Shown here piece after piece: positions 2,670-60,876 of a stretch of 60,876 nt of DNA (within the stretch, counting starts at the first letter, position 1; the number at the start of each line of letters is the position of its first letter). The DNA is taken from the NCBI GenBank assembly GCA_035371905.1, contig DAORXQ010000001.1:1-60876 (forward strand), in the 5' to 3' direction. This DNA comes from a bacterium. Lineage in GTDB: Bacteria > Ratteibacteria > UBA8468 > B48-G9 > JAFGKM01. Both the position numbers and the translations under genes were made by a program. The notes beneath the pieces are model-generated. The model was not told the DNA's origin. It was given only the letters and a program-made list of their open reading frames with translations, and made no database searches.

Positions 2670-3313
2670 TTGAACTTAAAAATATAACTGTTTCATATCC
2701 TGAAAGAGGAAAAGTCCTTGATAATCTTTCCCTTTCAATTTCAGAGAAGGATAGAATTGGAATAAAAGGAGCAAATGGTTCCGGAAAAACATCCTTACTT
2801 TATACAATTGTTGGTCTTGTAAAAATAGAAAAGGGAGAGATAAAAATATTCGGTAAAAAGATGGAAAAAGAGAGTGATTTTGTTGAGGTAAGAAAAAAAA
2901 TCGGTTTTCTGTTTCAGGACTCTGATGACCAGTTATTTTCTCCTACTGTTGAAGAAGATATTGCTTTTGGACCATTAAATTTAAGATTACCAAAGGAAGA
3001 AGTAAAAGAAAGGGTTGAAAGGACTATAAAACTTCTTGGTATAGAGAATTTAAAACACAGATTTTCCCATACACTTTCTTATGGAGAAAAAAGAATTGTA
3101 GCAATTGCAACAATTCTATCAATGGAACCTGAAATATATCTCCTTGATGAGCCAACAACAGGTCTTGATGAAAAAACAAGCCAGATAATTGAAAAATTTT
3201 TAATTCAGAATAATCTTACCTATTTAATGGTAAGCCATGATATAAATTTTCTTGAAAGGGTCTGCAATAAAATATATCTTCTTGAAAATGGCTCTCTCCT
3301 TTCAATAAAATAA
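2642..3313 (+). CDS. cbiO: ECF transporter ATPase CbiO/NikO
   Basis: Walker A GANGSGKT, ABC signature LSYGEKRIV, Walker B IYLLDEPT. Confidence 0.9.
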   Translation: MDNNFKNPLIELKNITVSYPERGKVLDNLSLSISEKDRIGIKGANGSGKTSLLYTIVGLVKIEKGEIKIFGKKMEKESDFVEVRKKIGFLFQDSDDQLFSPTVEEDIAFGPLNLRLPKEEVKERVERTIKLLGIENLKHRFSHTLSYGEKRIVAIATILSMEPEIYLLDEPTTGLDEKTSQIIEKFLIQNNLTYLMVSHDINFLERVCNKIYLLENGSLLSIK

Positions 3314-3334: not shown

Positions 3335-3985
3335 ATGGTTAAAATTGCTCCTTCTTTACTTTCTGCTGATTTTTCTCGTTTAGGAGAAGAGGTGAAGAAA
3401 GTTACAGAGGCAGGTGCTGATTTGATTCATTTTGATGTTATGGATGGACATTTTGTTCCAAATTTAACTTTTGGTCCAATGGTTCTTGCTGCAATAAGAA
3501 GATATTCACATCTACCATTTGAGGCACACTTAATGATAACAAACCCTGAAAAATACTGGAAAAATTTTGCTGATAGTGGAGCGGATATAATAGGAATACA
3601 TATAGAATGTGAAGTTGACCATAAATACATAATTACAGAAATACAGAAATATGGTAAAAGAGCATGTATTGTAATAAACCCACCCACTCCGGTTGAGAAA
3701 ATTTATCCTGTTTTAGAAATGGTTGATATGGTTTTGATTATGACTGTTAATCCTGGATTTGGAGGACAGAAATTTATATATGAGGTAGTTGAAAAAATAA
3801 AAAAAGTGAATGAATACAGAAAGAATAAGAAATTAAATTTTGAAATTGAGGTAGATGGTGGTATAAATAAAGAGACAGGAAAAATTGTGGTAGAAAATGG
3901 AGTTGATATACTTGTTGCTGGTAATTACATTTTTTCAGGGAATGACTATAAAGAAAGGATTGAAAGTTTAAGATGGAAAAGATAA
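3335..3985 (+). CDS. rpe: Ribulose-phosphate 3-epimerase
   Basis: IAPSLLSADFSRLGEEV, HFDVMDGHFVPNLTFGP, VNPGFGGQKF, VDGGI motifs. Confidence 0.9.
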   Translation: MVKIAPSLLSADFSRLGEEVKKVTEAGADLIHFDVMDGHFVPNLTFGPMVLAAIRRYSHLPFEAHLMITNPEKYWKNFADSGADIIGIHIECEVDHKYIITEIQKYGKRACIVINPPTPVEKIYPVLEMVDMVLIMTVNPGFGGQKFIYEVVEKIKKVNEYRKNKKLNFEIEVDGGINKETGKIVVENGVDILVAGNYIFSGNDYKERIESLRWKR

Positions 3986-5163
3986 GTTTTGAAGAATTGA
4001 AAAAAATACTTGAAAGAAAAGAAGAAGATATAGAAAAAGGTGTAAAGGAAATTATAAAAAGAGTTAAAGAAGAAGGAGATAAAGCAATATTTTATTATAC
4101 TGAAAAGTTTGATAGAGTAAAACTTGAAAATTTAAAGGTGAATGAGGATGAGATAAAAGAAAGCAGAAAATACTTAAAAGGAGAAATTTTTGAATACATT
4201 AAAAAAGCAAAAGAAAGAATAGAAAAATATCATAAAAAACAGTTGCCAAAAGGATTTAAAATAAAGGAAAAATATATTGAAATCGAATTCAGGTATCAGC
4301 CAATTGAAAAAGTTGGTATATATATTCCAGGAGGGCAATCCCCTTTAATTTCAACAATTTTAATGACAGTAATTCCAGCAAAAGTTGCAACTGTTAAGGA
4401 AATATATGTCTGCTCACCACCTTCTTATAATGGGAAAATTCATCCTTTAATAATCGCAACATGTGATTATCTTGGAATTAAAAATATTTTTTCTGCTGGT
4501 GGTGTGTGTGCAATAAGTGCTTTTGCTTTTGGGACAGAGACAATTCCTAAGGTTGATTTAATAGCGGGTCCTGGGAATAAATATGTAAATTGTGCTAAAA
4601 AGTTATTATTTGGAAAGGTCGGAATTGATTTACCAGCAGGACCGAGCGAAGTTGTTATTTTTTCAGATAGTTCTGGAATTCCTGATTTTATTGAATATGA
4701 TTTAAAGGCACAGATTGAACATACTGATGGAACTGGGATTTTAATAACAACAGATGAAAAAATTGGCAAAAATATAGAAAAAAAAGTTGAAAAAGGATAC
4801 TGGATTCTTGTTAAAAATGAAAAAGAAGCAATTGAAATAATAAACTATATAGCACCAGAACATTTAGAGGTAATTTCAAAAAAACCTTTTCTCTTTAAAA
4901 ATTGTAAGGCAGGAGCGATATTTATAGGGAATTATACACCTGTAACAATAGGTGATTATTTTGCAGGTCCTTCTCATGTATTACCAACAGGAATGTCAGC
5001 AAACTTTTCTTCAGGTCTTTCTGTATTTACTTTTTTAAGGAGTTTTGCAGTTATAAAATGTAAAAAAGAATTTATAAAAGAGTACGGTAAATACATAGAA
5101 AAAATAGCAGAGGTAGAAAAACTTGAAAGCCATAAGAATTCAATAAAAATAAGAAAATCATAG
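3973..5163 (+). CDS. hisD: Histidinol dehydrogenase
   Basis: 396 aa. VGIYIPGG...PLISTILMTVIPAKVA, AGPSEV, EHLE and PTG..A.FSSGLSV motifs are typical of HisD. Confidence 0.85.
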   Translation: MEKISFEELKKILERKEEDIEKGVKEIIKRVKEEGDKAIFYYTEKFDRVKLENLKVNEDEIKESRKYLKGEIFEYIKKAKERIEKYHKKQLPKGFKIKEKYIEIEFRYQPIEKVGIYIPGGQSPLISTILMTVIPAKVATVKEIYVCSPPSYNGKIHPLIIATCDYLGIKNIFSAGGVCAISAFAFGTETIPKVDLIAGPGNKYVNCAKKLLFGKVGIDLPAGPSEVVIFSDSSGIPDFIEYDLKAQIEHTDGTGILITTDEKIGKNIEKKVEKGYWILVKNEKEAIEIINYIAPEHLEVISKKPFLFKNCKAGAIFIGNYTPVTIGDYFAGPSHVLPTGMSANFSSGLSVFTFLRSFAVIKCKKEFIKEYGKYIEKIAEVEKLESHKNSIKIRKS

Positions 5164-11921: not shown

Positions 11922-12248
11922 ATGGAAAAGAATAATTTACCGAATCCAAGAATATCAGCAATACTTTCTTTTATTTTCAATGGACTTGGGCAGATTTATA
12001 ATGGAGAAATAAAAAAAGGACTTACACTTATTTTCCTTTCCGGTGTCTCTCTTTTAATTTTAATACTTGGAGCAATTTTTATCTTTTATTTCATTAAAAC
12101 ACTTCCTCCAATTAGTTTTTTAATATGGGGAGTTTGTCTTTTTTTCTTCGGTCTAACCTCAATTATTATAATAGGAATTTACAGTATTTCAGATGCTTAT
12201 AATAAGGCAAAAAAAATTTTAGAGGAATATGAAGGAAGAACTAAATAA
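11922..12248 (+). CDS. Small membrane protein (3 predicted TM segments)
   Basis: 108 aa, ILSFIFNGLGQIYNG motif. TAGAAT box 8 nt upstream of the ATG. Confidence 0.4.
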   Translation: MEKNNLPNPRISAILSFIFNGLGQIYNGEIKKGLTLIFLSGVSLLILILGAIFIFYFIKTLPPISFLIWGVCLFFFGLTSIIIIGIYSISDAYNKAKKILEEYEGRTK

Positions 12249-13107
12249 ATTTATTGATTATCTTGAAAACCAGAAAAATTATTCAAAACATACAGTAAAA
12301 GGTTATAAAAAAGATATATCACAGTTTATTGAGTTTTTAAAAGAAAAAAAAATCTCTGATTTTGAAAAAGTTGAATATGAGGATTTTATAAGTTTTATAG
12401 GTAAATTAAAAAATTCAAAATTAAAAGAAAAAACAATAGGAAGAAAGGTTGCTTCATTAAAATCATTTTATAAATTTCTTGTTATGAGAAAATATATAAG
12501 GAAAAATCCTGCTATCTTAATTCAATCACCAAAAATACCCGAAAAATTGCCAAATTTTTTAACCTATAATGAAATTTCCAGAATTCTTGAAATACCTTTT
12601 GATAAAAAAAACTGGCAGACATTAAGAGATAAAGCAATTTTAGAGATTTTATATTCCACTGGAATAAGGGTTGGAGAACTTGTAAATTTAAAATTAGAAG
12701 ATATCAATTTTGTGGATGAAGTTATAAAAGTAAAGGGTAAAGGGAAAAAAGAAAGAATAGTTCCAATAGGGAAACCTGCTTTAAATAGTTTGATTGAATA
12801 TATTGAAAAGAGACCGAATAAAAAGGAAAAATTCTTATTTTTAAATAAATATGGTAAAAAATTAACAGAAAGAACTATTGAACGACTTGTAAAAAAATAT
12901 TCATTAATATCTGGAATAAATAAAAATGTAACCCCTCATACAATCAGACATACTTTTGCAACACATCTTCTTGATAGAGGAGCAGATTTAAGAACTGTTC
13001 AGGAATTACTCGGACATGAAAGGATAACAACAACCCAGATTTATACACATCTAACTATAGAAAAATTAAAAGAATTATATGAAAAATTTCATCCAAGAGG
13101 TAAATAA
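12229..13107 (+). CDS. Tyrosine site-specific recombinase, XerC/XerD family
   Basis: N-terminal SAM-like core-binding domain. C-terminal RHTFATHLL...GADLRTVQELLGHERITTTQIYTH carries the catalytic Tyr. Confidence 0.85.
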   Translation: MKEELNKFIDYLENQKNYSKHTVKGYKKDISQFIEFLKEKKISDFEKVEYEDFISFIGKLKNSKLKEKTIGRKVASLKSFYKFLVMRKYIRKNPAILIQSPKIPEKLPNFLTYNEISRILEIPFDKKNWQTLRDKAILEILYSTGIRVGELVNLKLEDINFVDEVIKVKGKGKKERIVPIGKPALNSLIEYIEKRPNKKEKFLFLNKYGKKLTERTIERLVKKYSLISGINKNVTPHTIRHTFATHLLDRGADLRTVQELLGHERITTTQIYTHLTIEKLKELYEKFHPRGK

Positions 13108-13961
13108 TCTTTTAAAATCCTCTTTATCTCTTTTTCATCGGGCTTAAGATTCTCTATTTCAATTAAATCCCATATTTCTTTGTGTTCAATATATCCTTCT
13201 GGTTCAACAGTTTTCAATGGACTTAATGTTTCAAGTTCAAGAAATTGAGAATTTGTATAGACCTCAACATTGCATCCAAAATCAGGGTATTCTCCTTCAT
13301 AGAGAGCAATTTTTTTAACAAATAAAAGACCATCTACATAATAAGCAATCCAGTTTGAATTTACAAATGTTCCTATTTTAAATGGTCTTTCAATCTCTAC
13401 ATCCTGTTGAACAAAAATAAAATTTTCATTTAAAATCAATCTTTTGTCCGAAATATCTGTATACTGCCATAGAGAAATATGCCTGTCAGGTAAAAGTCCA
13501 TGTCTATCAACCTTTTTTGACTTTATAGGAATTATTGCAAAACCACCTTTTTTCATAACAGATAAAGCCCAGCATGCAAATTTAATTGGCCATCTTCCAA
13601 TATTCCTTATCCTGTGGTTTACTTCAATCCCTTCCTTTGTTTTTTTTATTTCAATTTCTTTTTTTACAGAATTCTGTATTTCTGCATTTCCAGAAATACT
13701 TATATTCTTACTCTTTTCTTCAATTTTTACAGGTTTATTATCAAGAGAATAGGAACGAGGTTTATCTTCTGGAGAAGTCCATAATCTGTGTCCTCCATAA
13801 ATCTGCCACTTCCCTTCTTCTGTATCTATTGTAAGGTCTGGAATAACTTCAAAAACATTTCTATCAGGATATTTTTTAAGCGAAAAATGAATAATCCTTG
13901 GTCCAATATCTTCGGGTATACCAATAATAAATTCCCCCATTTCAAACTTTTTTATTTTCAT
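13089..13961 (-). CDS. Hypothetical protein, possibly with a galactose-mutarotase-like fold (DUF4380-like)
   Basis: 290 aa, beta-rich, GGHRLWTSPE motif. SD AGGAG upstream. The family assignment is from memory only. Confidence 0.35.
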   Translation of the reverse strand: MKIKKFEMGEFIIGIPEDIGPRIIHFSLKKYPDRNVFEVIPDLTIDTEEGKWQIYGGHRLWTSPEDKPRSYSLDNKPVKIEEKSKNISISGNAEIQNSVKKEIEIKKTKEGIEVNHRIRNIGRWPIKFACWALSVMKKGGFAIIPIKSKKVDRHGLLPDRHISLWQYTDISDKRLILNENFIFVQQDVEIERPFKIGTFVNSNWIAYYVDGLLFVKKIALYEGEYPDFGCNVEVYTNSQFLELETLSPLKTVEPEGYIEHKEIWDLIEIENLKPDEKEIKRILKDYLPLG

Positions 13962-13974
13962 TTTTTTCTCCTAT

Positions 13975-14868
13975 TTATAGATTTAGAAGTTTAATAGCAT
14001 TTTCTCTTACAATTTTTCTGAATATATTTTCACTTATTTTTCCCTTTTCAACAAGACCTTTTAAAAATTTGATAAGTGGAGTATCCTGGTCAGGTCTACA
14101 TAAATCAGTTCCAAATAAAAGACGGTCAGAAAATTCACTTAAAAATTTAACCGCATATTCAGTGTCTCTTTTAAGTGCATTATATCCACTTCTTGCTGAA
14201 AGGTCTCCATAAAGATTTCTGTATTTTCTGAAAAGGACAGGGACAATTCCCTCTTCAATAACAGGATAATCAGGATATCCATATCTATCTTCCTCATCTT
14301 TTAGAACCGATATCTCTGACCAGAAAGAAGGACCGTGTCCGATAAATTTTAAATCAGGAAAAAGAGAAAGACATTTTTCAAGTTGAGGTAATCCCGGTTC
14401 ATCATATAATCCATAAGTATTTCCAAGTTTACCATTTCCATCAAAAATAATCGGAAAACCAACTTTTTCAGCATGTCTAAATAAATTTAAAACTCTTTCG
14501 TCAAGAAATGGAAGGTTTGGCATAACTTCTCCAATTCCTTTACAACCGAGAGATTTATAATAATTTAAAATTTTTTCAAAATCTGCCTCTGGTGAATTTG
14601 TTATAGCACGAGGGTCAATATTACAGAATGGTATAAATCTTCCTGGATATTTTTCACAGATTTCTATTATTTCTTCATTTGATTGAGGAAGATAAACTTC
14701 TGGATTTACAATCGGTAATAAAACTCCTTTTTCTATACCAAGTTCATCATATCTTTTTATAACTTGTTCAGGAGAAGAAAAGAGGGATTTTCCATCAATC
14801 CATATGTAAGGTCTTTTAAAAACGTGACAGTGAACATCTATAAAAACTTTTTCCATTTTAAAAATCAC
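13975..14868 (-). CDS. Amidohydrolase-family metal-dependent hydrolase (TIM barrel)
   Basis: N-terminal IDVHCH metal-binding motif, a later HGP motif and C-terminal FGTD. Confidence 0.65.
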   Translation of the reverse strand: MIFKMEKVFIDVHCHVFKRPYIWIDGKSLFSSPEQVIKRYDELGIEKGVLLPIVNPEVYLPQSNEEIIEICEKYPGRFIPFCNIDPRAITNSPEADFEKILNYYKSLGCKGIGEVMPNLPFLDERVLNLFRHAEKVGFPIIFDGNGKLGNTYGLYDEPGLPQLEKCLSLFPDLKFIGHGPSFWSEISVLKDEEDRYGYPDYPVIEEGIVPVLFRKYRNLYGDLSARSGYNALKRDTEYAVKFLSEFSDRLLFGTDLCRPDQDTPLIKFLKGLVEKGKISENIFRKIVRENAIKLLNL

Positions 14869-15376
14869 TGCCTATACCGATGAGAAAAAGTTTAGAATTA
14901 ATTCCTTCATTGGGCAATTTTATTCCGGCATTTGAAACATGCCTTAATCTTATCTCAGTATTTAAAAAAACTTTCTTCAAAAAAACCCTTACTCCAAAAC
15001 TTACTGATGATGCAAAATTAAAATGAGTGGATTGTTCAACAAAATCTGATGAAAGATAAATTATTCCTGTACCAACTTTCAAATATGGCTGGAAATTACT
15101 ATCAGAGAATTTATACAATAAAAAACCAGAAACTCCTATTTCAAAATTATCGGCTGGACTGAAGACATAAGAAACATATGGTTCTATCTGATAAAAAAAA
15201 TTTTTACTGTTTTTAATCGGTCTTGTGAAGTCAACCATCAATGTATAAAATTCATAATTTTTTGGATTTTGAATTTTTGCAAAGCCATAACCAGTATAAA
15301 AATCAACCTTAAAATTTCTAATTTCACAGAAACCTGAAGAAAAAATTAAAAAAATCAAGAATAATATTTTTTTCAT
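14858..15376 (-). CDS. Outer-membrane beta-barrel, lipid A 3-O-deacylase (PagL)/acyloxyacyl hydrolase-like
   Basis: Signal peptide, RLRHVSNAGI (H-x-S-N-A/G catalytic-type motif), C-terminal ..IGIGSDF. Confidence 0.6.
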   Translation of the reverse strand: MKKILFLIFLIFSSGFCEIRNFKVDFYTGYGFAKIQNPKNYEFYTLMVDFTRPIKNSKNFFYQIEPYVSYVFSPADNFEIGVSGFLLYKFSDSNFQPYLKVGTGIIYLSSDFVEQSTHFNFASSVSFGVRVFLKKVFLNTEIRLRHVSNAGIKLPNEGINSKLFLIGIGSDF

Positions 15377-53968: not shown

Positions 53969-54658
53969 ATGAAAAAAGTTATTGAGTTTTATAAAGGATT
54001 GAATAAACAGAATAGAATAATATTTTGGGTTTGTGTAGGTGTTATTTTTCTTACAATTTTAAGAGTGTCTATCTGGAGTGCAAAAAAAGACAAAACTCCT
54101 ACCGCAAAAATATTTATAAAACAGATAAAAAGTCCGAACAAAAATGAAAAAATATATGCAATTTATAATGCTGGAAATCTGAAGATAAAAGAGGCATTAC
54201 CTGATGTTGAGGATGTATTTCAAAAAGAAAACGATGAGGAAATTAAAAGAGTTTGTGCATGGAGTATAGGACAGATTGATTTTAATAAACTTCTTACATA
54301 TCTTGATAGTTCAGATAAAAAAATAAAGGAAATAACATTTGAAACGATATTGAAAATTGATAAGAAAAATATTGATTATCTTATAGAGAGATTTGATAAG
54401 GAAGATACGGATACAAAATTTAAAATACTTGATTATATGAATTCTCCGGAATATCAGGAAAAATTATTAAAAATTGTTGAAAATGAAAAAGAAGAAATAC
54501 CTGTCAGAAAGAAAGCACTTGAAATATTAAAAGAAAAAGGGAAACCAGAAGAAATAGAAACACCTTTATGGGCTCTTTATTATAATGAGCAGAATGATGA
54601 AATGAAAAATTATGTTTATCAGATAATTAAAGAAATTCAAAAGAGAGGCAAAAAATGA
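53969..54658 (+). CDS. Membrane-anchored HEAT-repeat protein
   Basis: N-terminal TM, then repeats of the ..vR..A.w.LGqI.. type (KRVCAWSIGQID, PVRKKALEILKEKG). Confidence 0.45.
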   Translation: MKKVIEFYKGLNKQNRIIFWVCVGVIFLTILRVSIWSAKKDKTPTAKIFIKQIKSPNKNEKIYAIYNAGNLKIKEALPDVEDVFQKENDEEIKRVCAWSIGQIDFNKLLTYLDSSDKKIKEITFETILKIDKKNIDYLIERFDKEDTDTKFKILDYMNSPEYQEKLLKIVENEKEEIPVRKKALEILKEKGKPEEIETPLWALYYNEQNDEMKNYVYQIIKEIQKRGKK

Positions 54659-55374
54659 AAACAAAAAGAATAAAAAAAGGAGGTTTCACATTAATTGAAC
54701 TTCTTGTTGTAATTTCAATAATCTCAATGCTTGCGGGCCAGATTTTACCATCACTTTCAACTGCAAGAGAAAAAGGAAGACAGGCAAACTGTATTAATAA
54801 TCTCCATCAGATTGGACTTGCAATTGAAATGTATTATCAGGATTATGATGAATATCCAACATGGCTTTCTTTACTCTGTAAAAGCGATACCCCTGGAATT
54901 GGTTCAAATTATCTCGGAACAGGTAAAATTTTTCTCTGTTTAACCGATATGAATAAAGGAAATAAAGGACATGGAAATCCATCCTTTCCTGAAATATGTG
55001 ATATCCCATTATCAAAAGTTCAGAATAGTTATCCTTCATATACGCCTGATACCTTTGACCAGAATGCTTATGCCCATAGAAATCCATCTGTTGAGGCCTG
55101 TTCATATTCATACGAATTTGCTCCAACGCATTGCAAATGGTTTGAAAGTACTCATAACCAAACAGATATTGCCCAGGCAGATGTAAACAACGATGGTGTA
55201 GTTTCATGGAAAGAAGCAAAGGTCTGGCAATCAAATCATGGTTATGGTGGACAAGTACCAATTGTAAGATGTTTCTGGCATTACTACAATCATAAACAGA
55301 AAATATTAAATCTTGCTTTCAGGGACTATAATGTTTTTATAAGCCAACCCGAATGGGAATCCTCATCTTACTGA
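54655..55374 (+). CDS. Prepilin-type N-terminal cleavage/methylation protein (DUF1559-like)
   Basis: [51 protein letters not shown] overlap with the HEAT-repeat gene. Confidence 0.75.
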   Translation: MKTKRIKKGGFTLIELLVVISIISMLAGQILPSLSTAREKGRQANCINNLHQIGLAIEMYYQDYDEYPTWLSLLCKSDTPGIGSNYLGTGKIFLCLTDMNKGNKGHGNPSFPEICDIPLSKVQNSYPSYTPDTFDQNAYAHRNPSVEACSYSYEFAPTHCKWFESTHNQTDIAQADVNNDGVVSWKEAKVWQSNHGYGGQVPIVRCFWHYYNHKQKILNLAFRDYNVFISQPEWESSSY

Positions 55375-55379
55375 AAAAT

Positions 55380-56306
55380 TTATCTTTTTGAGAGAAACCA
55401 TTCAATTGTTTTTTTAATTCCCTCTTCTATTTTATATTTAGGAGCCCAGTTGGTCTGACTTTTAATCTTTTCAATTGATAGGCAACTCCTTTTTAATTCT
55501 CCCTTTCTTTCTTCTCCATAAACTTTTTTACAATTTTTTCCAATATTCTCTTTTATAATCTCAAATATTCTGTTTACACTTGTTTCAATCCCTGTTCCCA
55601 CATTAAAAACTCCTGTTGTTTCATTCTTCATAAATAAAACATTTGCCTCAACAACATCATCAATAAAAATAAAATCCCTCGTCTGGTTTCCATCTCCAAA
55701 AATTATACATTCTTTCCCATCAAGTATTCTTGATATAAAAATTGCAATAACACCTGCTTCTGACAGATAATTCTGCCTCGGACCATAAACATTTCCATAC
55801 CTTAAAGCAACATAATTTATTCCATACTTTTTCCAGTAAGCATATAATAGTTTTTCACCTGTTAATTTTGAAATACCATAAACACATATAGGAAATGGCT
55901 CAATAGTTTCAGGACTTGGAAAAATATCAGTCAATCCATACATAACTCCACCTGTTGAAGAAAAAATAATTTTTTTGGGTGGTTTTTCCTTTGCACATTC
56001 AAGAATATTTATAATCCCTCCTATATTTACATCAACATCAAAGATAGGGTCTTCCTCTCCCTTTCTAACATTTATCTGTGCAGCAAAATGAAAAATATAA
56101 TCAAAATAATAATTATCAAAAATCTCTTTTAACTTTTCTTTTTCCCTTATATCAAAATTATAAAAAATAACTTCTTCATTCAGATTTTCCAGTGAACCTG
56201 TTGAAAGATTATCAATTACTATAACTTCATTCCTTTCTTTAACCAATCTATCAACTGTATGACTTCCTATAAAACCTGCTCCACCTGTAACAAGAATTTT
56301 TGACAT
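55380..56306 (-). CDS. NAD-dependent sugar epimerase/dehydratase (UDP-glucose 4-epimerase-like SDR)
   Basis: ILVTGGAGFIGSH, Y-x3-K (YGISKLTGE). The start is taken at MSKILVTG, 2 nt after the upstream stop. Confidence 0.8.
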   Translation of the reverse strand: MSKILVTGGAGFIGSHTVDRLVKERNEVIVIDNLSTGSLENLNEEVIFYNFDIREKEKLKEIFDNYYFDYIFHFAAQINVRKGEEDPIFDVDVNIGGIINILECAKEKPPKKIIFSSTGGVMYGLTDIFPSPETIEPFPICVYGISKLTGEKLLYAYWKKYGINYVALRYGNVYGPRQNYLSEAGVIAIFISRILDGKECIIFGDGNQTRDFIFIDDVVEANVLFMKNETTGVFNVGTGIETSVNRIFEIIKENIGKNCKKVYGEERKGELKRSCLSIEKIKSQTNWAPKYKIEEGIKKTIEWFLSKR

Positions 56307-56308
56307 TT

Positions 56309-57280
56309 TTAATCCTTCAAAATGACATCCTTGAGCCAATCCCTGTTTTCAATATACCAGTTTACTGTTCTTTCAATACCTTCATTTATATCAATTTTAG
56401 GAGTCCAGTTCAATAAATTTTTTGCCTTTGTTATATCAGCATAAGTTGCCTTTATATCCGCTTTATGAAATGGAGCATAAATAATCTTTGCTTTTTTATT
56501 CAATTTTTCCTCAATTAATTTTATAATTTCATTCAATTGATGTGGATTGCTGTTCCCAAGATTTATTACATGGAAACCAGAAAGATTGAGCCCTGAAATA
56601 GTCCCTTCTGCAATATCATCAATATAGGTAAAATCCCTGCTCTGTGTCCCATCTCCATAAACAGTTATCTCTTTTTCCTCATCAATCAATTTTATAAACT
56701 TAAAAATACTCATATCAGGTCTTCCACATGGTCCATAAACAGTAAAATATCTGAAAATAACAACATCAATCCCGAAAAGATAATGGTAAGTATAACAGGT
56801 AAGTTCTGCTGCTTTCTTACTTGTAGCATAAGGAGAAATTGGATTATTTACAGGCAAGTCCTCTTTAAAAGGTGTATTACAACCAGCATAAAGAGAAGAT
56901 GTTGAGGCAAGAATAAATTTTTTTATTTTAAAGTCCTTCGCACATTCAAGAAGATTTAAATTCCCTATTACATTTGTCTGGTAATAAATTTCAGGATTTT
57001 CAATACTTGCTCTCACTCCAGCACGAGCAGCAAGATTTATTATTGCATCCGGCTTTGCTTCCTTTACAATATATTTAATATTTTCCCTTGAAATATCAAG
57101 TTTTACAAATGAGAAATTTTTATTTTTCTGTAATTTATCCAGTCGCCACTTTTTCAATTTTACATCATAATAATCATTCAAATCATCAATACCAAGAACT
57201 TCTTCTCCTTTTTCCAATAACTTTTCCGAAACCTTCCATCCAATAAAACCACATGCACCTGTAACTAAAATTTTTCCCAT
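56309..57280 (-). CDS. NAD-dependent sugar epimerase (UDP-glucuronate 4-epimerase-like SDR)
   Basis: ILVTGACGFIGWK, YATSKKAAE, GDGTQSRDFTYIDD. Confidence 0.8.
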   Translation of the reverse strand: MGKILVTGACGFIGWKVSEKLLEKGEEVLGIDDLNDYYDVKLKKWRLDKLQKNKNFSFVKLDISRENIKYIVKEAKPDAIINLAARAGVRASIENPEIYYQTNVIGNLNLLECAKDFKIKKFILASTSSLYAGCNTPFKEDLPVNNPISPYATSKKAAELTCYTYHYLFGIDVVIFRYFTVYGPCGRPDMSIFKFIKLIDEEKEITVYGDGTQSRDFTYIDDIAEGTISGLNLSGFHVINLGNSNPHQLNEIIKLIEEKLNKKAKIIYAPFHKADIKATYADITKAKNLLNWTPKIDINEGIERTVNWYIENRDWLKDVILKD

Positions 57281-57287
57281 GCTTTAA

Positions 57288-57296
57288 ATTATATCA
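57288..57296 (-). promoter_or_regulatory. Extended -10 TGaTATAAT, 7 nt upstream of the ATG at 57280 (leaderless candidate)
   Basis: The minus strand reads tTGATATAATttaaagcATG. Confidence 0.45.
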
Positions 57297-57332
57297 TAAA
57301 TTTAAAAAGTCAAATCAAAAAATTAATTTAAC

Positions 57333-57362
57333 TTGACACACCTACAAAAAACAAGGTAAAAT
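57333..57362 (+). promoter_or_regulatory. Promoter TTGACA-N18-TAAAAT, 6 nt upstream of the GTG at 57369
   Basis: Counted directly. Only CAAACT separates the -10 box from the GTG. Confidence 0.45.
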
Positions 57363-57368
57363 CAAACT

Positions 57369-60026
57369 GTGGAAAAAAAAAGAAATAAAGGTGTAGCATT
57401 AATTGCTGTAATTGTAATGATAGTTCTTTTTTCTTCCCTTATAATGGTCGTTGTCCTTTCATCTACAATGTCAATAAAAAGGGCTTATTTTTATCATGAT
57501 AGAACAAAAGCACTTGAAATAGCAGAAAACGCAATACAGGATGTATTTAACTGGATGAATTACCGTGCCTATGATACAGAATACTATCCTTCCTGGTATG
57601 CAAACAATCAACCACCTGATTCTCCAACAAAAGTTTACTTTACAGGAACAACTTTTTCCCCAAGTCCTGTAAAAGTAAATGCCCCTTATATTCCAGAAAA
57701 AGGAGAATGTATAGTTGAATTTTTTGATGATAATGGGGAGAATAAAGATACAATAACAGCTATAGGTAAATACAGGGGGAGAACAGCAAAATTAAGTGTG
57801 AAGGTAAGGGGGGAAAATGGATATGATAATAATACACATAAAAACTTTGCTTTAAGATTGGGGAATATAGAGACATTTCAAGTTGATATAAATTTTGAGC
57901 CAATAGGTGCTAATCCATCCATTCAATATCCTGATAAAGGAGAAGTTTTTGGAGATAGAGGGAATGGTTATAAATATGGCTGGAGTGAGGATAGAACTGG
58001 TTATGTATATGACAGGGATATATTACCCAACTCTTATCAGTATCTTGATAATCAGTATCTTGATACCCTTGCGATAATGAATGGAGCAAAATGGGAGATA
58101 GAAGTTCCTAACTGGTATTATAGTGTTACCGTTGATTGTGGAGACCCTATGGACCCTGAGTGTGATGATTATAACCATGATTTAATTATAGAAGGGCAAT
58201 TAAGTCACATTTCTTCACCTAATTTTTCTGTTAGTGTTTTAAGAAACCCTGGACCACCTCCAGTATACGATGTTTACTGGTATAAAAGGCACATTGTAGA
58301 TGTCACAGTAAATGATGGGAGATTAACAATTGAACCAGTAGATACATCTAATAATGGTCCGAGAATATGTCATATTCAAATAAGACCAAATTCAGGTGTA
58401 AACTGGGCAACACCAGAAGCATTTAATAAACATCTTGTATATTCAAATACTGTGTCAGGAAATACAGGGTCAAATCAAATTCTTGTTAATGGAAATATAA
58501 CTTATAATAACTGGCAGGCAAATTTAAATTATAAAGATGAAAGTAAAAAAACTTTTACACATACCAGTTCTTTTTCAATTCCGAGAAATTCAGCAAGTAT
58601 AAGTATTCCAGTAGCAACAACTTTACAACAGCCAAATTTTACACCAACTCCTACAATGAGATTTAAGGATAGCAATGGCAGTACTCCTTATGACCCTGCA
58701 ACAGGTTATAATTCTTATACTGACTTAACAAATATTAATGGTGGAAATGACCCTTATAATGTTTCAGGAACAAGTGAATATTATACCTTTTCAAATTTAA
58801 GTAATCTTTCATCAGGTACTTATTTTTTTGAAAAAACAGATAGTAAAACACAATTACAGATAAAATTTACACCAAACAGCAATCCCAACATTCCTTCAGG
58901 AATAATCCTAAAAGCAGGAGCAATTGATTCAGGTGAAGCAGCAGATATAATAATTGATGTTAATCTTGATTCATCTACCTCAATACTCGGTCAACTTATG
59001 GCTGAAAGAAATATTGAGATAACTGGAAGTATCCCTGTTTCCATCGGTTCTTCAAATCAATATACAATTGCTGCAAGAGATACAGTTAAAATCAGTCCAT
59101 CAGGAAATCTTACAATAAATGGAAATATTTATGGTGGAAAAAAAGTTTATATTCAGGCAAATAACAATACAATCACAATAAATGGAAATATCTGTGCAGA
59201 TAATCAAAGTGAAAATAGTGAAATAGAAATAAGAGGAACAGGAACAATAAATATAAATGGAAAAATCTATGCTAAAACTAAAATAACAATAGATGGAACA
59301 GGTTTAAATTTAACAATAAGCGATGAAGTTAACTGCCCTGGTGAAGTAATAATTCAGGGAAGTGGAAATGTAACAATTAATAAAGATTTAAAAGGTGGAC
59401 TTCAAACAGGTGGTTCAGTAAATTTAACTGTAAACGGCAGTGTATTTTCTAATACCGCAAATATACCTATAAATATTGGAGGAACTGGAAATATCAACAT
59501 AAATGGAGTTATAGCAGGAGTGGGTGTTATTACAATTTCAAATTCAAAATTAACAGTTGACGCAAGAAATACAAATTATGCTGGTGCTATATGCTGGGAT
59601 GGAAATGGAACAATAACAATATCTTCCTCTCCAGCAATTTATCTCGGCGAGCATCAATATTCAGCAATTTTTGTTGATTCTGGAACAGGTGATGTAAATA
59701 TAAATGCCCGTATAAATCCAAACTATTATCTACCCACTTCTCAATCAGTTTCAAATCAGATGGCCATAATAAACAAATCAAGTTCTAATAATATAAACAT
59801 TAATGCAGAAGTGGTTGGACCTGTGTATTCAAGAACAAATATAACAGTGGGAACAAACGGAAAAGTAAAAGGAGCAATAATAACAGACGGGACTCTTACT
59901 TTAAATGGTGGAGAAATAATTTATGATAGCGCTCCTTTTAAGAATAATACAGAAGTTTATAAGGGCTTTACAGGTGGCAGAAGAAAATATTTACCAGTTA
60001 TAGGAAGTTGGAGAATTGAATGGTGA
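57369..60026 (+). CDS. Giant PilX-like minor-pilin/pseudopilin: N-terminal PilX-type anchor, lectin-like beta-sandwich, long C-terminal beta-solenoid
   Basis: The leader MEKKRNKG is followed by the hydrophobic VALIAVIVMIVLFSSLIMVVVL and ..RTKALEIAENAIQD (PilX_N pattern). Residues ~160-340 have a malectin/CBM-like signature (KWEIEVPNWYYSVTVDCGD...VNDGRLTIEP...ICHIQI). Residues ~560-860 carry ~20-residue repeats (TINGNIYGG, TINGNICAD, NINGKIYAK, NINGVIAGV...). Confidence 0.65.
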   Translation: MEKKRNKGVALIAVIVMIVLFSSLIMVVVLSSTMSIKRAYFYHDRTKALEIAENAIQDVFNWMNYRAYDTEYYPSWYANNQPPDSPTKVYFTGTTFSPSPVKVNAPYIPEKGECIVEFFDDNGENKDTITAIGKYRGRTAKLSVKVRGENGYDNNTHKNFALRLGNIETFQVDINFEPIGANPSIQYPDKGEVFGDRGNGYKYGWSEDRTGYVYDRDILPNSYQYLDNQYLDTLAIMNGAKWEIEVPNWYYSVTVDCGDPMDPECDDYNHDLIIEGQLSHISSPNFSVSVLRNPGPPPVYDVYWYKRHIVDVTVNDGRLTIEPVDTSNNGPRICHIQIRPNSGVNWATPEAFNKHLVYSNTVSGNTGSNQILVNGNITYNNWQANLNYKDESKKTFTHTSSFSIPRNSASISIPVATTLQQPNFTPTPTMRFKDSNGSTPYDPATGYNSYTDLTNINGGNDPYNVSGTSEYYTFSNLSNLSSGTYFFEKTDSKTQLQIKFTPNSNPNIPSGIILKAGAIDSGEAADIIIDVNLDSSTSILGQLMAERNIEITGSIPVSIGSSNQYTIAARDTVKISPSGNLTINGNIYGGKKVYIQANNNTITINGNICADNQSENSEIEIRGTGTININGKIYAKTKITIDGTGLNLTISDEVNCPGEVIIQGSGNVTINKDLKGGLQTGGSVNLTVNGSVFSNTANIPINIGGTGNININGVIAGVGVITISNSKLTVDARNTNYAGAICWDGNGTITISSSPAIYLGEHQYSAIFVDSGTGDVNINARINPNYYLPTSQSVSNQMAIINKSSSNNININAEVVGPVYSRTNITVGTNGKVKGAIITDGTLTLNGGEIIYDSAPFKNNTEVYKGFTGGRRKYLPVIGSWRIEW
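60004..60024 (+). repeat. Direct repeat copy 1: GAAGTTGGAGAATTGAATGGT
   Basis: Identical 21-mer at 60504-60524, offset exactly 500 bp. Covers the last codons of the 885-aa gene. Confidence 0.95.
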
Positions 60027-60040
60027 AGAAGGAGGAAAAA

Positions 60041-60289
60041 ATGTTAATGGAGTATATTGAAAAAGCGTTAAAAAAAGCAGAATATAAAAAAATTGAAGAT
60101 GGAACCTGGTTTGGTACAATAAAGAATTTTGAAGGTGTTTGGGCTAATGGAAAAACTATTGAAGAAACAAGAAGACAACTTATAGAAGTATTAGAAGAAT
60201 GGCTTTTACTGAAAATAAAAGATGGAGATGAAATTCCGGAAATAGACGGTGAAAAAATTGAAATAAAAAGAGTTCCAAGTAAGATATGA
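60041..60289 (+). CDS. hicB: HicB-family antitoxin (UPF0150-like)
   Basis: ..GTWFGTIKNFEGVWANGKTIEETRRQLIEVLEEWLLLKIKDGDEIPEI. The ATG at 60041 is preceded by GGAGG. The tracked ORF starts at the duplicated ATG at 60020. Confidence 0.75.
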   Translation: MLMEYIEKALKKAEYKKIEDGTWFGTIKNFEGVWANGKTIEETRRQLIEVLEEWLLLKIKDGDEIPEIDGEKIEIKRVPSKI

Positions 60290-60501
60290 AAAAAGTAATA
60301 AAATTTGATGAACTTGTGAGAAAATTTAGGAAATTAGGTTATGAAGGGCCCTTTTCAGGTGGGAAACATTTATTTATGAAAAAAGGAAGTAAGAAGGTTC
60401 ACATACCCAATCCTCATAAAAGTAAAGATATTCATATAAGTTTGCTTAAAGAGATTTTAAAATGTGCTGGAATTGATGAAAAGGAATGGGAAGATGCATA
60501 A
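60286..60501 (+). CDS. hicA: HicA-family mRNA interferase toxin
   Basis: KLGYEGPFSGGKHLFMKKGSKKVHIPNPHKSKDIHISLLKEILKCAGI. ATGA overlap with hicB. Confidence 0.8.
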   Translation: MKKVIKFDELVRKFRKLGYEGPFSGGKHLFMKKGSKKVHIPNPHKSKDIHISLLKEILKCAGIDEKEWEDA

Positions 60502-60503
60502 GA

Positions 60504-60524
60504 GAAGTTGGAGAATTGAATGGT
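60504..60524 (+). repeat. Direct repeat copy 2: GAAGTTGGAGAATTGAATGGT
   Basis: Contains the ATG (60520) of the downstream prepilin gene and a dead ..SWRIEW-TAA remnant. Confidence 0.95.
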
Positions 60525-60876
60525 AAATAAAAATGGATTAACTCTACTTGAAGTTTTGATTGCAGTTTTTCTTATGGCTATTGTTATTGCTGGTGGACTT
60601 CTTTTAATTTCAGGAAATTTAAATGTTATAAAAAAGGCAAATGAATTAACTATAGCAACTGCTTTATTACAATATACAATTGAAGATATTAAAAATATTG
60701 ATTTTCCACCAGTTTATTATGATAGGCAAGGTAATTTTGGAGATGAAGTTGAAACAGAATCAATTGTAGATGTAAATTTATATACTGATTATACACCTGT
60801 TTTTTACAAAAATGATTATAGGATTATAAGATTTGTTCAAGGTTTAGATAGTTCTGGGAATATTATTTCAAATTTT
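60520..60876 (+). CDS. Prepilin-type minor pilin/pseudopilin (5' partial, runs off the window)
   Basis: MVNKNG/LTLLEVLIAVFLMAIVIAGGLLLI: a class III signal peptide with Glu at +5. Open to the window end. Confidence 0.7.
   Translation, partial: MVNKNGLTLLEVLIAVFLMAIVIAGGLLLISGNLNVIKKANELTIATALLQYTIEDIKNIDFPPVYYDRQGNFGDEVETESIVDVNLYTDYTPVFYKNDYRIIRFVQGLDSSGNIISNF

Follow-up and report, generated by a model that had tools for sequence, protein, structure and literature searches.

Comparative analysis of a 60,876-nucleotide (nt) stretch of bacterial DNA (Ratteibacteria; GenBank assembly GCA_035371905.1, contig DAORXQ010000001.1, forward strand; the whole stretch is called the window below) indicates that a 479-bp hicBA toxin-antitoxin cassette was, with near certainty, inserted at the junction between two genes of a pilus operon, with duplication of 21 bp of the target. 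The upstream gene encodes a large PilX-like protein and the downstream gene a minor prepilin. The junction is empty in five related lineages, and related hicBA cassettes occupy it in several others, which makes it a recurrent site for these modules. We lean slightly towards a reading of the whole in which hicBA entered at this junction, came to depend on the pilin operon and spreads by host recombination that the conserved junction guides.

The inserted cassette and its duplicated junction

The 21-mer GAAGTTGGAGAATTGAATGGT occurs on the forward strand of the window exactly twice (Table 1), and a scan of the sequence combined with Pfam matches confirms that its two copies bracket only hicB and hicA. 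No third copy is present in the window even when up to three mismatches are tolerated, and none of 100 dinucleotide-preserving shuffles produced a 21-mer match by chance. The identity of the copies ends sharply, copy 1 being both preceded and followed by G and copy 2 by A. Copy 1, which closes the open reading frame (ORF) of the PilX-like gene, contains the ancestral Shine-Dalgarno GGAG (60010-60013) and the former pilin ATG (60020), and its left flank aligns with every empty site in the relatives up to ..ATGGT. Copy 2 carries the present pilin start together with a dead ..SWRIEW-TAA remnant, and its right flank aligns with every empty site from GAAGTT.. onward. The insertion point lies 5 bases into the pilin gene, within the 7-base stop/start overlap ATGGTAA, and the first bases of the cassette (GA) have turned the stop codon of the PilX-like gene from the ancestral TAA into TGA (60024-60026). 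An earlier note on this DNA had read the locus in the same way, as a toxin-antitoxin module dropped into an operon junction with both neighbours intact. The ORFs bear this out, and Pfam matches to HicA_toxin and UPF0150/HicB-like, both above their cut-offs, and to N_methyl place hicBA at a PilX-like/prepilin junction. The exact 500-bp spacing of the copies, which that note had stressed, is real but coincidental, the spacing in related loci being 503, 526, 529 and 569 bp.

The 521-bp block comprising repeat, cassette and repeat shows no difference among 12 contig loci; the 11 samples or assemblies behind them are Joint Genome Institute (JGI) and European Nucleotide Archive (ENA) metagenomes, two NCBI metagenome-assembled genomes (MAGs) and Logan assemblies, which were built with different assemblers. 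These loci are 100% identical over kilobases on either side and represent one clonal population sampled many times. Elsewhere in the window there is no other bracketed cargo (no exact repeat pair of at least 16 nt within 5 kb, low-complexity A/T runs aside), and no other toxin-antitoxin-like pair is found among the small non-overlapped ORFs.

Table 1. Features of the hicBA locus in the window (positions are those of the window unless a contig is named)
Feature	Position	Strand	Remarks
Best promoter-like site (candidate)	57333-57362	+	TTGACA-18-TAAAAT, 11/12 consensus matches, directly 5' of the PilX-like gene
PilX-like large pilus-operon gene	57369-60026	+	885 amino acids (aa); N-terminal hydrophobic segment, conserved C-terminus ..GGRRKYLPVIGSWRIEW
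Repeat copy 1	60004-60024	+	Native 3' end of the PilX-like gene (..S W R I E W)
Inserted DNA	60025-60503	+	479 bp: 16-nt leader, hicB, hicA and 2 nt past the hicA stop
hicB (antitoxin)	60041-60289	+	82 aa, UPF0150 type, without DNA-binding domain
hicA (toxin)	60286-60501	+	71 aa; 4-nt overlap (ATGA, 60286-60289) of its start with the hicB stop
Repeat copy 2	60504-60524	+	Shine-Dalgarno (60510-60513) and pilin ATG (60520) rebuilt
Minor prepilin gene, 5' part	60520-60876	+	Window ends inside the gene; full gene 158 aa (L001 10235-10711)

In HicB, residues 4-66 of the 82 match the Pfam family PF21748 (UPF0150/HicB-like; 95.7 bits, cut-off 27.3; 1.5e-27), and its closest solved structure is TTHA0281, a stand-alone protein of 87 aa (PDB 2DSY; 3e-11, residues 2-75). 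Its size leaves no space for a helix-turn-helix (HTH), ribbon-helix-helix or Phd domain. HicA matches PF07927 (HicA_toxin; 42.6 bits against a cut-off of 27; 6.7e-11), with PDB 1WHZ as the closest solved structure (0.007). Its GGKH motif appears as GG(K/R)H throughout the seven members of the clade that were compared, and in the HMMER alignment to 1WHZ the histidine falls one residue off the GGH of that structure. In size, too, HicB (82 aa, against 60-90 aa) and HicA (71 aa, against 60-85 aa) fall within the ranges expected of their types. Judged by sequence, the cassette is an ordinary compact Class 2 hicBA module, and HicA is predicted from its family to be an mRNA-cleaving toxin restrained by HicB. 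The ratio of nonsynonymous to synonymous divergence (dN/dS) of hicA is ~0.07-0.13 against four other junction-associated cassettes (L023, L024, L028 and L036; such handles designate individual loci), and the comparison of related cassettes gives ~0.07-0.28 where the synonymous divergence (dS) is measurable. These values indicate that both genes are maintained by purifying selection. The G+C content of the cassette (29.6%) is close to that of the window (29.4%), its third-position G+C is also host-like, and the nearest HicA in the databases is 86% identical, with a dS of ~1.

The repeat also gives hicB an upstream in-frame ATG (60020), as had been pointed out earlier. That codon is present and would add 7 codons to give a protein of 89 aa, but the extension is probably incidental because the homologues and the PDB match begin at ATG 60041 (ML.EY), which has AGGAGG 5 nt before it. 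Gene callers disagree on the start among contigs, giving either 82 or 89 aa. A HicB variant, P0193, encoded along with P0147 on a 680-nt ENA contig, is 96% identical and has the extension MVKKEGK in place of MVKKEEK in the window, which would imply the same left junction in a diverged strain and an insertion older than that split. When a captured 'MV..' N-terminal extension was used as a proxy for further junction insertions, P0193 was the sole HicB homologue found to carry one.

Only 14 nt separate the stop of the PilX-like gene from the hicB ATG, and these contain the AGGAGG (60030-60035). No promoter- or terminator-like signal was detected inside the cassette, and there is no Rfam match at E<=1 in 59500-60876. 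Given a 16-nt leader without a promoter and a HicB without a DNA-binding domain, the cassette appears to ride on the pilin-operon transcript, such that hicBA would be transcribed with the operon and translated from its own AGGAGG. The site directly upstream of the PilX-like gene (Table 1) is a candidate promoter from which the operon as a whole, the cassette included, would be transcribed. It is the top promoter-like site of 57200-60876 by consensus match only, and the total of such sites in that interval is not above that in shuffles. Translation of the pilin gene, in turn, would now depend on the rebuilt Shine-Dalgarno of copy 2, which lies 19 nt past the hicA stop. In this arrangement the hicBA module could persist as an addictive passenger of the pilin operon.

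Empty and occupied junctions in related lineages

The earlier note had anticipated empty sites with a single junction and ATGGTAA in relatives, and such sites are seen in five lineages (L013, L016, L017, L039-41 and L042-43), where the pilin gene directly follows the PilX-like gene. Each has one junction copy, ..AGTTGGAGAAT(T/A)GAATGGTAAA, in which the TAA of the large gene overlaps the pilin ATG, and it is this single-copy state that identifies the arrangement in the window as an insertion with a 21-bp target duplication. The orthologues of the 885-aa protein are 72% (L016), 66% (L013) and 51% (L017) identical to it, and those of L039-41 and L042-43 are more distant. The exact 21-mer is also present in L013 and L039, though the proteins are no more than 65% identical. 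The gene order 5' of the large gene (HEAT-repeat gene, N_methyl/SBP_bac_10 gene and two epimerases) is common to the window, L016 and L039, and this conserved block helped establish that the empty sites are orthologous. Downstream, L039 also matches the window in its two pilin genes, Gly_transporter and tRNA-Ser; a downstream tRNA-Ser is found in L013 as well. Since the relatives sharing gene order (L016, L039 and, in part, L013) are all empty, one gain is more parsimonious than several precise losses. Averaged against the five empty lineages, nucleotide identity along a 1.2-kb alignment is highest at the junction (mean 0.90 at -29..0, versus 0.4-0.76 over most of the large gene), the likely reason being that the C-terminus, the Shine-Dalgarno and the start codon are jointly encoded there.

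Inspection of the contigs of the closest HicA relatives revealed at least three other lineages in which a homologue of the PilX-like gene is followed by related hicBA cassettes. In L028-30 a 574-aa homologue (..GSWRIIW) is followed by two different cassettes, the first HicB_lk+HicA and the second UPF0150+HicA, and then by pilin genes, with three copies of CTGGAGAATTATATGGTA bracketing both cassettes. The L028 repeats measure 19 and 20 nt, in addition to a 47-nt tract, and the similarity of the copies extends 27 nt into two non-homologous hicB genes (whose proteins are 26% identical) and ends at a shared GAATAT, as would be expected of a crossover at microhomology. In L024-27, where the homologue ends in ..GSWQVRW, hicBA comes next, and behind it the last ~56 nt of the gene are repeated. 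This second copy, mostly non-functional sequence, departs from the gene by one indel, to which one of the contigs adds a single substitution. L036-38 have hicBA at the same junction with no repeat. L023, from a contig with a coverage of only 2.5x, has two cassettes in a row. The second of these is bracketed by an exact 30-nt repeat with a decayed PilX-like end (..CSWKVEW and stop), and the first begins with ATGGAAGAA, which is the start of the downstream nitroreductase gene. This joint and the one at GAATAT in L028 look like joints formed at short shared sequences.

All eight junction-associated cassettes are co-oriented with the upstream gene. The duplications (19, 20, 21, 30, 47 and 56 nt) match each lineage's own gene rather than one another. 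Their downstream limit falls within 2 nt of the end of ..TGGT in the window, L028 and L024, and the distance from there to the upstream limit is 19, 21 or 56 nt; two of the duplications begin only 2-6 nt ahead of the Shine-Dalgarno. No common sequence was found in the 3' tails of the cassettes (2, 2, 13, 19, 22 and 34 nt past hicA). hicBA pairs of the same clade that lie in unrelated contexts (four loci: L018, L019, L031 after secF, and L033-35 in a deltaproteobacterial MAG) served as controls; a spacer of 80-700 nt precedes them, and their flanks are not duplicated. The uniform orientation at the junction and this contrast are in keeping with a dependence of the cassettes on the host operon. 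The synonymous divergence between the cassettes of different lineages is ~1 per site or more, i.e. saturated; against this scale the near-intact 56-nt copy in L024 must be far younger than the split between the cassettes. The PilX-like/pilin junction is a hotspot that hicBA cassettes have entered in several lineages, and this recurrence is the new element in the picture.

Besides the pair at the junction, L036 encodes at 1412-1865 a second hicBA (a weak HicB_lk match of 73 aa and a HicA of 81 aa) directly 5' of the PilX-like gene; its hicA stop overlaps the ATG of the large gene (ATGA), and no flanking duplication was found around it. Toxin-antitoxin pairs thus occur at more than one junction of the PilX-like operon. 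The same locus contains GC-rich hairpin-type repeats (3626-3758 and 4829-4887; e.g. GCCACGCCCGCCTGAGGCGGACTCGCAATGAC; a 59-nt family with 76% identity) that resemble repetitive extragenic palindromic (REP) sequences or MITEs, the miniature transposable elements with inverted repeats. They fill the spacer between the large gene and hicB and recur 3' of the pilin gene, and a further hairpin lies within the long leader of the pilin ORF. In L024 the place of a pilin gene past the second junction copy (2002-2644) is taken by two overlapping ORFs, one of 158 aa (with a weak PIN_12 match that stays below cut-off) and one of 58 aa; they may form one more cassette of toxin-antitoxin type, in which case this gene end would be a small cassette island. 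The first codons of the HicB_lk-type antitoxins appear to be copies from the gene that lies downstream of the insertion point, namely 3221-3267 versus 3724-3770 in L028 (MLNEY.., as in the neighbouring hicB) and 56-91 versus 1091-1126 in L023 (MEE.., as in the nitroreductase), which suggests that a cassette captured a host start region in frame.

Candidate mechanisms of insertion and spread

The ends of the cassette lack terminal inverted repeats, either junction region folds no better than shuffles on both strands (z +0.5 to +1.4), and the 479 bp within the bracket encode HicB and HicA only, with no recombinase or transposase. The flanks fetched for L028, L036 and L024 likewise contain no transposase or integrase. 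The earlier observation that no transposase, integrase, inverted repeats or attC-like structure is visible holds for the window itself; beyond its end, however, ~1.6 kb past hicA, there is a gene for a tyrosine integrase abutting tRNA-Ser(GCT), which scores 69 bits against an integron-integrase cut-off of 265. On L001 the region 12010-15281 (~1.5-4.8 kb past the hicA stop) comprises the tRNA-Ser(GCT), this integrase, an HTH_17 excisionase-like gene and small genes, and its far end lies beyond the contig. It is an ordinary tRNA-targeting genomic island, separate from the hicBA insertion. We rejected its integrase as the agent, given its position at tRNA-Ser, the tRNA-Ser of L039 that follows Gly_transporter without an integrase being called, and the integrase-free flanks of the other occupied loci.

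Several known kinds of element could be rejected in the same way. An integron gene cassette would bring an attC hairpin and an adjacent integron integrase with attI and Pc, neither of which is present. Against an insertion sequence, MITE or transposon speak the missing terminal inverted repeats, a bracket holding only hicB and hicA, and the variable duplication length, and against an integrase-borne integrative element speaks the lack of a tyrosine or serine recombinase within the direct repeats. The dif consensus is a 28-bp site with two partly palindromic 11-bp arms and a 6-bp spacer. Dyad symmetry is absent from the 21-mer and its flanks, which excludes a Xer-dependent dif/pdif module. A search for the junction motif in viral contigs gave eight matches, all due to chance and none with a PilX-like reading frame. 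The argument that the duplication is too long for a transposon needs recasting in that its length is not fixed (19-20 and ~56 bp in other lineages) and the event is not unique; a trans-acting enzyme encoded elsewhere in the genome is a possible inserter.

We propose instead that the conserved junction may guide host recombination that spreads cassettes between related genomes. The likely route would start from a small molecule that holds the cassette together with one junction copy, either an excised circle or a repeat-ended fragment that was taken up, and that recombines by a single crossover with the junction of a related genome. Rare illegitimate events would found each lineage-specific arrangement, selection would keep only those products that duplicate the Shine-Dalgarno and start of the downstream gene, and no element-encoded transposase or integrase would take part. 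We regard the chances of this recombination mechanism as roughly even. Homology guidance is supported by the conservation peak at the junction and by the 21-mer common to the window, L013 and L039. Furthermore, the duplicated segment is single-copy at naive targets and common to potential donors, as Campbell-type integration calls for, and the single crossover of a circular molecule is documented to leave a flanking direct duplication of the homologous segment (PMC3240628).

A number of points weigh against this proposal. In the population of the window, all 12 of the 12 loci are identical and clonal; no empty allele is found among them, nor any circular or excised form of the cassette, and the databases contain no near-identical donor cassette. 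With 19-21 bp, the homology at best just reaches the length usually needed for RecA-type recombination. Guided recombination, moreover, only propagates units of repeat, cassette and repeat that already exist, and a founding duplication is still needed. The exact 30-nt repeat of L023 is a decayed remnant, which a target-copying mechanism explains more simply; the 56-nt repeat of L024 matches its own gene only; and the near-constant insertion point in three loci could indicate a site-specific nick.

More tentatively, the junction might be a de facto attachment site at which promoterless hicBA cassettes build integron-like arrays without integrase or attC, through a process that copies 19-56 bp of the target that was entered. 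The mover would then be either host recombination of junction-bearing mini-circles or a template-switch/complementary DNA (cDNA) route. If true, toxin-antitoxin modules would have a means of independent movement that has so far not been described.

The exact copying of the local target in each lineage, including the non-functional remnant of L023, is also what one would see if a trans-acting, site-preferring enzyme (a transposase, casposase-like integrase or nickase) inserted the cassettes at ..TGGT/AA through staggered cuts, with target-site duplications of variable length. Such an enzyme would account for an insertion point that, in the window as in L028 and L024, keeps to within 2 nt of TGGT although the duplication varies at its other limit, and long variable target duplications are known from the IS1634 family. 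We nonetheless consider it unlikely: across the loci there are no terminal inverted repeats, hairpins or conserved cassette ends, no transposase is present in the bracket or the fetched flanks, the sole nearby recombinase is the tRNA-Ser island integrase outside the operon, and the range of duplication lengths from 19 to 56 nt misfits a fixed stagger.

Copy-choice template switching, either during DNA replication or in cDNA of operon and hicBA transcripts, would have a polymerase exit at ..ATGGT, copy hicBA and re-enter the operon 21 nt upstream, the product being fixed, in the cDNA version, by homologous recombination through long flanks. No microhomology is visible at the window's own joints, and the available sequence yielded neither a reverse transcriptase nor a donor copy; the use of the same junction in several lineages, too, would go unexplained unless homology-guided spread or strong selection were added. 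These points make the process improbable as the main cause, even though it accounts for de novo local duplication of any length, for promoterless cassettes that run from just before the Shine-Dalgarno to just past the stop, for the strict co-orientation with the operon, and for the joints at short shared sequences in L028 (GAATAT) and L023 (ATGGAAGAA).

It is quite unlikely that a single ancient insertion in a common ancestor was inherited vertically and precisely lost, through its repeats, in the empty lineages, with selection keeping the copies identical. The strong constraint on the 21-mer does mean that copy identity says little about age, the synonymous divergence between cassettes is saturated, and precise loss between direct repeats is easy. 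However, this history needs at least three independent precise losses, including in the relatives that share gene order, in place of one gain. The youth of the 56-nt copy in L024 relative to the cassette split argues against it, and the repeat limits vary between lineages and even within L028. Finally, an assembly artefact (a mis-join or chimeric contig), for which nothing speaks except the general risk of repeats in metagenome assemblies, is hardly conceivable given the identical 521-bp block with its flanks from several assemblers, the 96%-identical HicB variant with the same captured extension on another contig, and two intact genes under purifying selection.

Operon setting and comparison with known systems

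The 885-aa protein of the window has no Pfam or NCBIfam match at E<0.01, and PilX_N matches only the L028 homologue, weakly (E=0.038); NCBI names the homologue P0009 a 'pilus assembly PilX N-terminal domain-containing protein'. Twelve of the 13 PilX-like homologues end in GSW(R/K)IEW (..GSWRIEW in the window), and prepilin genes lie downstream of the PilX-like gene in every lineage but L024. The proteins of this group (that of the window and P0002-P0018; 562-889 aa) have a near-identical N-terminal hydrophobic segment and the C-terminus ..GGRRKYLPV.GSWRIEW. Their middles are highly divergent and carry 'GTGNININ'-type repeats (direct repeats at 59235, 59481 and 59682 in the window). In this the PilX-like protein has the look of a surface or tip protein that is hypervariable between conserved ends. 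The minor prepilin is recognized by Pfam N_methyl (5e-06) and NCBIfam IV_pilin_GFxxxE, with weak GspI/PilV-like matches. Further upstream, 53969-55374 and 55380-57280 contain the HEAT-repeat gene, the N_methyl/SBP_bac_10 (DUF1559-like) gene and the two epimerase genes, which are NAD-dependent and divergently oriented.

The spread of chromosomal toxin-antitoxin pairs that no plasmid, phage or transposon carries is poorly understood. The present locus offers a clean before/after case, in which the cassette would borrow the transcription of the pilus operon and the damage done by insertion would be repaired by a duplicated ribosome-binding site and start codon. Both host-operon regulation and an enzyme-free, homology-guided mobility become directly testable at this junction. 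For annotation, the insertion leaves behind a dead gene-end remnant and a probably spurious 7-codon extension of hicB that is called inconsistently.

In open-access text we found no literature on toxin-antitoxin cassettes that are bracketed by duplicated gene junctions or recur at one conserved junction, and the parallels with known systems are partial. Elements of the IS1634 type share direct target duplications of variable length that far exceed 2-14 bp, but their transposase and terminal inverted repeats are absent here. Campbell-type integration likewise leaves an insert flanked by a direct duplication of the piece of target that it carried, although the documented duplications are 109-950 bp long (PMC3240628) as opposed to 19-56 bp here. 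In homology-facilitated illegitimate recombination, one homologous end anchors foreign DNA and recipient DNA is usually deleted (PMC3240628).

Among toxin-antitoxin systems, the Class 2 hicBA modules (Gerdes 2024, mBio, PMC10865869) share with the cassette the order hicB-hicA, the overlap of the genes, the small HicA and a HicB without a DNA-binding domain, the regulation of which is stated there as an open question. That paper is silent on movement, whereas the module of the window is embedded in a host operon with no space for a promoter and with the junction duplicated. The Escherichia coli yafNO pair, directly after dinB, is similarly expressed within the operon of its host gene and under the host promoter (PMC7167474); it lies at the operon end and not between overlapping genes, and the parts of that source dealing with it describe no junction duplication, recurrence or array. 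In Haemophilus influenzae, hicAB lies in the major pilus (hif) gene cluster, where hic genes were originally reported as an insertion and from which the name originates (as cited in PMC11594946), and going by that citation the module is present in the pilus cluster of some strains and absent from others. The pilus, however, is of another type, hicA comes first and HicB is of another type, such that this parallel may be a coincidence. The ccdO157 module of E. coli, as mentioned in PMC3184786, is a chromosomal toxin-antitoxin module that varies between strains at a fixed site between two housekeeping genes, that site being the folA-apaH spacer, a variable intergenic region often with REP sequences, rather than a gene overlap.

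In organization there is a likeness to integron cassettes, which are also small, promoterless, co-oriented, served by an upstream promoter and arranged in rows separated by repeats, as in the repeat-cassette-repeat-cassette-repeat order of L028. They differ from the locus in the window in having attC, IntI and attI, in place of which the repeat here is a copied junction of the host's own genes.

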